Shown piece after piece: positions 57,696 through 57,896 of a stretch of DNA of 64,000 bases (positions within the stretch are counted from its first letter, which is position 1; every line of letters starts with the position of its first letter). Position numbers and translations under genes: made by a program. Under the pieces are notes generated by a model. The model made no database searches. It was not told the origin of the DNA and was given only the letters and a program-made list of their open reading frames with translations. This stretch comes from a virus. Where the stretch lies: IMG/VR virus record IMGVR_UViG_3300045988_116240. One strand, given 5' to 3'.

Positions 57696-57896
57696 TGATG
57701 GTAGCGGGACTCGAACCCGCATGAGTGGAGTTTTCTCAGGACTCTCACCTGATAGTTTTGTTATTGGCACGTTGCGGTGACATTCGGCCTTACCCGTTAT
57801 ACTTCCTTTGGCTAGTTCAGTTTATTTTACGATAACCTTCATTCAACCACTCTATAAGAAATTAACTTTAGCGTCTACCAATTCCGCCATACCACC
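57696..57896 (-). tRNA. class-II tRNA-like gene (Leu-type D-arm) with about 118 nt inserted in the variable arm
   Basis: 5' part GGTGGTA-TG-GCGGAATTGGTAGACGC...; 3' part GCGGG-TTCGAGT-CCCGC-TACCATC-A. 7-bp acceptor (one G-U). Stem GAGTGG (57847-57852) / CCACTC (57723-57728) brackets the insert. Confidence 0.5.

Follow-up and report, generated by a model that had tools for sequence, protein, structure and literature searches.

Introduction

tRNA-like RNAs that do not decode are few: tmRNA, the tRNA-like structures at viral 3' ends, mascRNA and YrlA. None of them forms, as far as is known, a modular family in which closely related viruses exchange the internal domain. Phages encode ornate RNAs, GOLLD and ROOL, often beside tRNAs, and RNA C and RNA D of phage T4 are processed like tRNAs. 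The latter two are stable RNAs of the T4 tRNA cluster, with a function that is still unknown (PMC9697503). In engineered tRNA scaffolds, a foreign structured RNA is placed in the body of a tRNA, and the tRNA enzymes give it defined ends and stability (PMC3753655). A tRNA-like fold may also define the end of its neighbour: RNase P forms the 3' end of MALAT1 upstream of mascRNA (PMC8457004).

A system of another kind is FopS, a 14-copy family of Bacteroides sRNAs whose 5' seed represses susC-type mRNAs. FopS ends in a Rho-independent terminator, and one copy in a Caudovirales phage has been mentioned (PMC11697453).

Here we describe a locus in which features of these systems meet. It lies in a 64-kb stretch of DNA (64,000 nucleotides, called the window below) from the IMG/VR virus record IMGVR_UViG_3300045988_116240, whose nearest cultured relatives are Bacteroides and Phocaeicola phages. 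We found no description in the literature of the tRNA-like family to which the locus belongs.

Results

A frame resembling class-II tRNA-Leu

The element occupies positions 57896 to 57696 of the minus strand (201 nt). Read along this strand, it runs GGUGGUA-UG-GCGGAAUUGGUAGACGC-UAAAGUUAAUUUCUUAUA-GAGUGG-[118 nt]-CCACUC-AU-GCGGGUUCGAGUCCCGC-UACCAUC-A, with the 3' part GCGGG-UUCGAGU-CCCGC-UACCAUC-A. All features are listed in Table 1. A preliminary description of this DNA had recognized a 7-bp acceptor stem and a canonical T arm, made of halves spanning 201 nt: the coordinates and helices are correct, and each end motif has a single copy in the window and none in 100 shuffles, with three mismatches tolerated. 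The weak anticodon-like hairpin UAAAG-UUAAUUU-CUU(A)UA is likewise found exactly as it was described. So is the helix GAGUGG/CCACUC at the site of a class-II variable stem, in which 57852-57847 pair with 57728-57723 and enclose the 118 nt of 57846-57729; the host variable arm lies at the same place. Exchange of these 118 nt for a tetraloop, GAAA, had been expected to leave a class-II tRNA of about 87 nt. It leaves 87 nt, which ARAGORN folds into a class-II shape with the loop UUAAUUU.

Table 1 Features of the element and of the sequences on both sides of it, in minus-strand order.
Feature	Position	Strand	Remark
FopS-like seed GUGUGUUUUUCAUGGUAUUAGAUUU	57947-57971	-	Counterpart of the R1' seed of host FopS; first 23 nt identical to Parabacteroides and Bacteroides FopS
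Linker GGGUUAGAAUGAUUAU	57931-57946	-	Colinear with the FopS linker in alignment A2
Leader hairpin CCCCGC-C-GUCC-GUGA-GGAU-AUG-GCGGGG	57904-57930	-	Homologous to the FopS terminator hairpin; no U-tract after it
Spacer CAAACAC, from hairpin to G1	57897-57903	-	Predicted RNase P leader; putative cleavage
Acceptor stem, 5' strand GGUGGUA	57890-57896	-	7/7 pairing with 57703-57697
D arm GCG-GAAUUGGUAGA-CGC, Leu type, G18 G19	57871-57887	-	17/17 as in host tRNA-Leu
Anticodon-arm remnant UAAAG-UUAAUUU-CUU(A)UA, bulged A	57853-57870	-	Stem does not vary within the window's cargo class
Variable-arm helix, 5' strand GAGUGG	57847-57852	-	Pairs with 57728-57723
Cargo domain, 118 nt	57729-57846	-	Kept in 12 IMG/VR contigs and in other frames
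Proposed H-type pseudoknot, S1, S2 and A-rich third loop UAAAAUAAACUGAAC	57810-57845	-	By analogy
Hairpin H3 CGG-GUAAGG-CCG	57785-57796	-	G-C to A-U pair change in relatives
Hairpin H4 CAC-CGCAAC-GUG	57768-57779	-	C-G to G-C pair change in relatives
Hairpin H5 UCAGG-UGAGAGU-CCUGA, AAAACU on both flanks	57736-57752	-	Three compensatory pairs against CUUGG/CCAAG
Variable-arm helix, 3' strand CCACUC	57723-57728	-	Covariation
T arm GCGGG-UUCGAGU-CCCGC	57704-57720	-	GCGGG/CCCGC becomes GCAGG/CCUGC in relatives
Acceptor stem, 3' strand UACCAUC, and discriminator A	57696-57703	-	CCA not encoded
Downstream ORF, 44-aa membrane peptide (METIQNLDHL...)	57543-57677	-	Begins 18 nt after the RNA; not linked to cargo type

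The element shares with class-II tRNA-Leu the 7-bp acceptor stem, the discriminator A, a D stem of 3 bp whose 11-nt loop is the same as in the host, the T arm and the variable-arm helix. It differs in having no usable anticodon loop, in a variable-arm loop of 118 nt as against 3-5 nt, and in its total of 201 nt; it also fails Rfam and default ARAGORN. With ARAGORN at default settings and Rfam at the gathering score, no call falls on the element, and the calls elsewhere in the window are two ordinary tRNAs and one odd tRNA. The Rfam family RF00005 gives a partial match of 15 bits, against a gathering score of 29 bits; shorter members of the family described below score 31-41 bits with the same model, end to end.

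The D arm is identical at 17/17 positions to Parabacteroides tRNA-Leu(CAG/CAA) genes. The T arm agrees with Parabacteroides tRNA-Leu(CAG) at 15/17 positions, and a CAU before the T arm is common to both. The short variable arm of the host, UGUC-GAGA-GGCA, aligns exactly with the GAGUGG...CCACUC site. From the match of the D and T arms, the alignment of the variable arms and the fold obtained with GAAA, we infer that the element derives from tRNA-Leu and that the insert sits topologically in the variable-arm loop: on these comparisons, the frame is a class-II tRNA-Leu derivative with a large insert in that loop. Judged by the same alignments, what the frame keeps is the set of parts seen by tRNA-handling enzymes, namely the acceptor stem, the discriminator A, the Leu-type D arm and the T arm, here with a loop of the UUCRANY type. 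The structural prerequisites of an RNase P and RNase Z substrate are predicted to be in place.

The exact 26-nt 5' motif of the element is absent from genuine host tRNA genes. Searched in 185,579 species genomes, it occurs in five contigs only, four of Bacteroides/Parabacteroides and one from a Chloroflexota-labelled MAG, and in none of the five does it lie inside a normal tRNA gene. A remnant of attP or of an integration site was rejected, as both tRNA halves are present and the 26-mer is missing from true host tRNA genes.

Covariation and fold of the cargo

We aligned eight sequences of the window's cargo class (alignment A1) and tested them against a named structure. In this alignment, 96.4% of the cells are paired, against 35-44% with 3' partners shifted by 1-3 columns, and 12 pairs are changed on both sides, against at most two in the shifted controls. 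The doubly changed pairs are found in the acceptor stem (3), the D stem (1), the variable-arm helix (2), H3 (1), H4 (1), H5 (3) and the T stem (1). Those of the acceptor come from relatives with the frame GUCAGUA/UGCUGAC; the D stem passes from GCG/CGC to GUG/CAC, and the two compensatory pairs of the variable-arm helix are seen against GAUAGG/CCUAUC. A search for homologous inserts in related phages, as proposed in the preliminary description, shows the cargo conserved in 12 IMG/VR contigs. The fold is specific to the minus-strand RNA because of G-U pairs. The anticodon-like hairpin is the one frame helix without covariation support, being invariant in A1; in a distant member (L169), its shape, including the bulged A, is kept with other bases, as judged by eye.

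The cargo appears, partly by analogy, to hold an H-type pseudoknot with an A-rich loop and three hairpins, H3 to H5. Stem S1 of the pseudoknot joins UGA (57845-43) to UCG (57832-30), only 3 bp in the window, and stem S2 joins GGUUA (57837-33) to UAGCC (57814-10). In A1, the changes that the longer relatives show in both stems are all one-sided, with 78-88% of the cells paired and the window rows misaligned at this place. A sister cargo class has the same S1/S2/GUAAAA architecture, with covariation in both stems and 100% of the cells paired; the architecture is also seen by eye in the L004 class. Because the changes in A1 are one-sided and the covariation is that of the sister class, we count the pseudoknot of the window as an analogy. 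Four loops of the cargo are conserved: GUAAAA, CGCAAC, UGARAGU and AAAACU.

By minimum free energy, the 201 nt fold no better than shuffled sequences do (z = -0.24); the method is blind to pseudoknots and tertiary contacts. An Rfam search of the insert for a known RNA, also suggested earlier, returned no family at E ≤ 10; on 13 loci covering most of the other cargo classes, only tRNA and FopS match at E ≤ 1. We also considered a cargo that would be a copy of a host RNA or a long antisense to it, and BLAST against three Bacteroides/Parabacteroides genomes gave matches at chance level only (E ≥ 0.09).

On the plus strand, the H5 region (57736-57752) reads as a hairpin followed by UAGUUUUGUU and scores as terminator-like; it could stop antisense transcription into the element.

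A family with exchangeable cargo

The 26-nt 5' motif is present in at least 102 IMG/VR contigs. Among the matches listed, the RNAs measure 104-220 nt; they are nearly identical in the acceptor, D and T regions, but about a dozen unrelated classes can be told apart by the middle. When the search is anchored at the 3' side, the cargo class of the window turns up in other frames as well, for instance one with the acceptor GUCAGUA/UGCUGAC and the D stem GUG/CAC.

In phages syntenic with the window, leaders are 83-99% identical and frames 80-100% identical; cargos are just 33-62% alike, or 75% inside the window's own class. At the locus of the window, behind the leader related to FopS, these phages have seven cargo lengths (116, 143, 151, 191, 201, 211 and 220 nt) and at least five unrelated sequences. 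By these comparisons, the element is a real conserved RNA gene, whose frame is constant and whose cargo is exchanged like a cassette in Bacteroides/Parabacteroides phages.

The ORF downstream varies independently of the cargo and encodes either a membrane peptide of 44-50 aa or an acidic peptide of 21 aa. A toxin-antitoxin arrangement, with the cargo tied to the downstream peptide, was rejected: cargos assort freely with the two different ORFs. No conserved neighbouring gene of the element was found.

The family extends to cultured material. Phage BF1-TP2, with the host B. fragilis, carries a 116-nt member, and members occur in genomes of Parabacteroides isolates. In the GenBank record of BF1-TP2 (L001, PQ571263.1, positions 3006-3170), a hypothetical protein of 54 aa, gp8, is annotated over the 116-nt member and its leader; this is probably a mis-annotated RNA gene.

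Frames are not uniform. Some relatives have U or G as the discriminator instead of A, and some lack both G18G19 and the UUC T-loop, so the canonical elbow is not universal in the family. In L119, L115, L112, L133 and the second element of L037, D loops without G18G19 (GAACAAYGAGAGA or AAUUUAGA) occur with T loops without UUC (GUGCAAGUC or GUGUAAGUC): both elbow partners of the tRNA fold were, it seems, lost or altered jointly.

Several other observations concern individual members. In L106 (4200-4375) and in L192 (Parabacteroides genome G001, contig C67), the cargo holds a second tRNA-like unit with D-loop-like and T-arm sequences of its own. Cargos of the L003 class (186-189 nt; L003, L008, L018, L051 and L066) contain a G-run of 7-10 G among otherwise identical contigs, which could be slippage-type length variation or a sequencing artefact. 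A conserved non-coding stretch, ...ACGGGG...GACACGACUGAAAGAAGCCG..., lies downstream of members in tRNA arrays (L037 at 2900-3200, likewise L044, L054 and L089). In the window itself, ARAGORN reports a second aberrant tRNA-like gene at 63861-63928 of the minus strand, 'tRNA-??? anticodon (ac)', with good acceptor and T arms and a 6-nt anticodon loop (UCCC-UAACAU-GGGA). Similar 'tRNA-??? (tc)' genes adjoin family members in phages L005, L016, L037, L054, L084 and L103.

A leader homologous to FopS

The 75 nt before G1 match the Rfam family FopS, RF04319 (E = 0.0064, 32 bits; E = 2.3e-4 per genome). The score of the leader, 31-32 bits, is below the gathering score of 56. In a comparison with FopS of B. 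ovatus and of Parabacteroides, the leader aligns colinearly with the host genes and is identical at 53/72 positions, including the first 23/23, and the top of its hairpin, GUCCGUGAGGAUA, is that of Parabacteroides FopS.

Like FopS, the leader has a single-stranded 5' seed R1' (23 nt), a linker and the hairpin top. Unlike FopS, it lacks the Rho-independent terminator: the U-tract is replaced by CAAACAC, with the tRNA-like gene directly after it. Terminator prediction on the minus strand gives no site from the leader as far as the downstream ORF. The stems of the leader hairpin covary in relatives (GUCU/AGAU and GCCCGGC/GCCGGGC, by eye) around a conserved loop, and many loci have a hairpin and then CAAAYNY ahead of the frame. 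As far as colinearity can tell, the leader is a full-length homologue of the host FopS sRNA, in which the tRNA-like gene has taken the place of the terminator U-tract.

Such leaders are found at 36 of about 100 IMG/VR loci. Another 12 have only a GNRA-capped hairpin, behind a perfect Bacteroides -7 box, and the remaining loci sit either in tRNA arrays, behind hairpins of the GAAAGA type, or immediately past a coding sequence. Upstream of the FopS-like seed, the window has a promoter that agrees only weakly with the Bacteroides -7 box. There is also a perfect TAnnTTTG inside the seed, so that transcription could begin after it.

An action of the seed in cis on the start of the downstream ORF was considered, with a duplex of -19.5 kcal/mol in the window and of -7.6 to -16 in relatives, and was dropped because the duplex is not conserved in relatives.

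Elsewhere in the phage, at 23371-23418 of the plus strand, the sequence CCUAAAUCUAUUUUACCAUGGAAGAAAAUA comes close to a reverse complement of the FopS-like seed. It covers the start region of the ORF 23401-24159, whose product of 252 aa gives weak hints of a PD-(D/E)XK nuclease. The predicted duplex with the seed (-26.3 kcal/mol) ranks among the strongest 0.08% when 2,444 windows centred on ATG in the phage are compared, and on this prediction the gene may be under the control of FopS, host or phage-encoded. A very large ORF for a 64-kb phage, of 4,754 aa, spans 9024-23288 of the plus strand.

Comparison with other tRNA-like RNAs

The preliminary description had read the anticodon as AAU or UAA, and neither is workable. 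The loop UUAAUUU has a U at position 37; in relatives the loop varies in sequence and in length (3-10 nt), without a conserved triplet. The canonical 7-nt anticodon loop, with U33, a purine at 37 and a conserved anticodon, is not found. Since the anticodon-like loop is non-canonical here and of 3-10 nt across relatives, we conclude that the element is not a decoding tRNA.

Like tmRNA (SsrA), the element has tRNA-like ends around a large internal domain that starts with a pseudoknot, here a proposed one, and its processing would be of the tRNA type. Unlike tmRNA, it has a full D arm, its pair 3-70 is U-A and not G3-U70, and neither ARAGORN nor Rfam calls a tmRNA. There is no conserved tag frame either, with indels among relatives: the frame of the window and of L098 ends with UGA in the H5 loop, and a tag ORF was rejected because L115 has a 1-nt indel that breaks this frame and L119 has stop codons in it.

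YrlA also mimics tRNA; in contrast to the element, whose ends form an acceptor stem, its ends form a Ro-binding stem, and its gene adjoins rsr. The phage has no TROVE (Ro60/rsr) or RtcB gene, and we set aside a YrlA or Y RNA. No Rfam match of the element to YrlA/Y RNA, GOLLD or ROOL was obtained.

In MALAT1-mascRNA, MEN-beta and mitochondrial tRNA punctuation, as at this locus, a tRNA-like fold stands right after another RNA, whose 3' end would here be formed by an RNase P cut. MALAT1-mascRNA and MEN-beta differ in being eukaryotic, and mascRNA is small and has no cargo; processing of the element is predicted. T4 RNA C and RNA D resemble the element as phage-encoded RNAs tied to tRNA genes, with a stability that the element would share. 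They have no sequence relationship to it, and cargo swapping is not described for them. In engineered scaffolds the insert replaces the anticodon stem; the element, unlike these, is natural, and cargo of the window's class is in the variable arm.

Discussion

A proposed scaffold with a cargo effector behind a FopS mimic

The best explanation of the whole, to which we would give a little over an even chance, is a non-decoding scaffold derived from tRNA-Leu that carries a cargo effector, stands behind a FopS mimic and is processed by RNase P and RNase Z. All three parts, FopS mimic, hairpin and tRNA-like RNA, would share one transcript. Host RNase P would cut before G1 and so form the 3' end of the FopS mimic of about 75 nt, in place of a terminator; the mimic would then act like host FopS and repress susC-type mRNAs. 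The tRNA-like RNA would owe its finished 3' end to RNase Z and the CCA-adding enzyme, and its frame would give the cargo defined ends and tRNA-like stability. The cargo, covarying and hypervariable, would be the effector: it would bind a host or phage factor and act in trans.

The neighbour genes encode NinB, DUF4494, a band-7-like lipoprotein, NinG, HNH and a replication initiator. Such an early, accessory-type phage region fits a role in host takeover or conflict, and a locus that stays fixed while its cargo is hypervariable has the look of a conflict interface. A bolder form of the model, which we regard as rather unlikely, makes the tRNA-Leu chassis a natural platform for RNA display, which would exploit the tRNA maturation of the host to build up its RNAs: swappable, aptamer-like cargos would serve as decoys or sponges against defence or regulatory factors of the host, with a different target for each. 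In the lineage of the window, the FopS mimic on the same transcript would rewire the expression of SusC-type transporters.

Alternative explanations

The element might serve for punctuation only. The fold would recruit RNase P and RNase Z, which would end the FopS-like sRNA and start the downstream mRNA, and the cargo would have no function. The position of the element, between an sRNA-like leader without terminator and an ORF that begins 18 nt downstream, is in favour of this, and MALAT1-mascRNA is a precedent (PMC8457004). However, a plain tRNA would suffice for such a task, whereas the helices of the cargo are kept by compensatory changes and its loops are conserved. Many members, moreover, have no FopS leader, or lie in tRNA arrays or directly past the stop of a coding sequence. 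We think this explanation improbable, though worth keeping in mind.

Of similar, low probability is a decoy made by the acceptor end. The RNA could be charged by LeuRS, or be bait for enzymes or toxins that work on the acceptor end or the elbow of tRNAs. It would then titrate a defence directed at tRNAs, or supply Leu-tRNA for a use outside the ribosome. Recognition by bacterial LeuRS is independent of the anticodon, which counts for this possibility, as do the retained discriminator A73, Leu-type D arm and T arm; the locus is also hypervariable, like conflict loci. Yet some relatives have U or G as the discriminator or have lost G18G19 and the UUC T-loop, and the elaborate and diverse cargos would be left unexplained.

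Far less probable is a tRNA-Leu(GAG) with an intron, in which removal of a 124-nt intervening sequence would leave a decoding tRNA of 78 nt. It is what ARAGORN returns with the intron option, a check proposed at the outset, and the loop CUGAGAA looks canonical. This loop is, however, the 3' strand of H5, a cargo stem with three compensatory pairs, and relatives read CAAGGAA or CAAGAAA at its position, without U33. The intron would interrupt the anticodon loop at its 5' edge, ahead of the anticodon, as against the canonical 37/38 site, and unrelated cargo sequences fill the same place. We agree with the preliminary description that the insert is too short for a group I intron; no group I or other intron family and no ribozyme family matches it at E ≤ 10, and self-splicing is not supported either. 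Among the three options that had been offered for the insert, the tRNA-derived scaffold with an embedded structured RNA is supported by the tRNA-Leu homology and the covariation, and the self-processing intron is not.

A decayed tRNA pseudogene hit by an insertion, or a pair of unrelated tRNA remnants, both envisaged earlier and consistent with the silence of default tRNA finders, we consider next to impossible: pairing between the halves is 7/7, with joint covariation, the frame is retained in more than 100 phage contigs, and the cargo is conserved with covarying helices.

Significance

The proposed scaffold with its cargo effector can be studied at the bench, since BF1-TP2, a phage of B. fragilis, and genomes of Parabacteroides isolates carry members. 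The fusion to FopS suggests that phages tap the host sRNA network for polysaccharide-uptake porins, and that a tRNA-like element can replace a bacterial terminator. Provided that they accumulate, the RNAs would represent in nature what the engineered tRNA scaffold is in the laboratory, and a new class of phage structured RNA in one of the main bacterial groups of the human gut.
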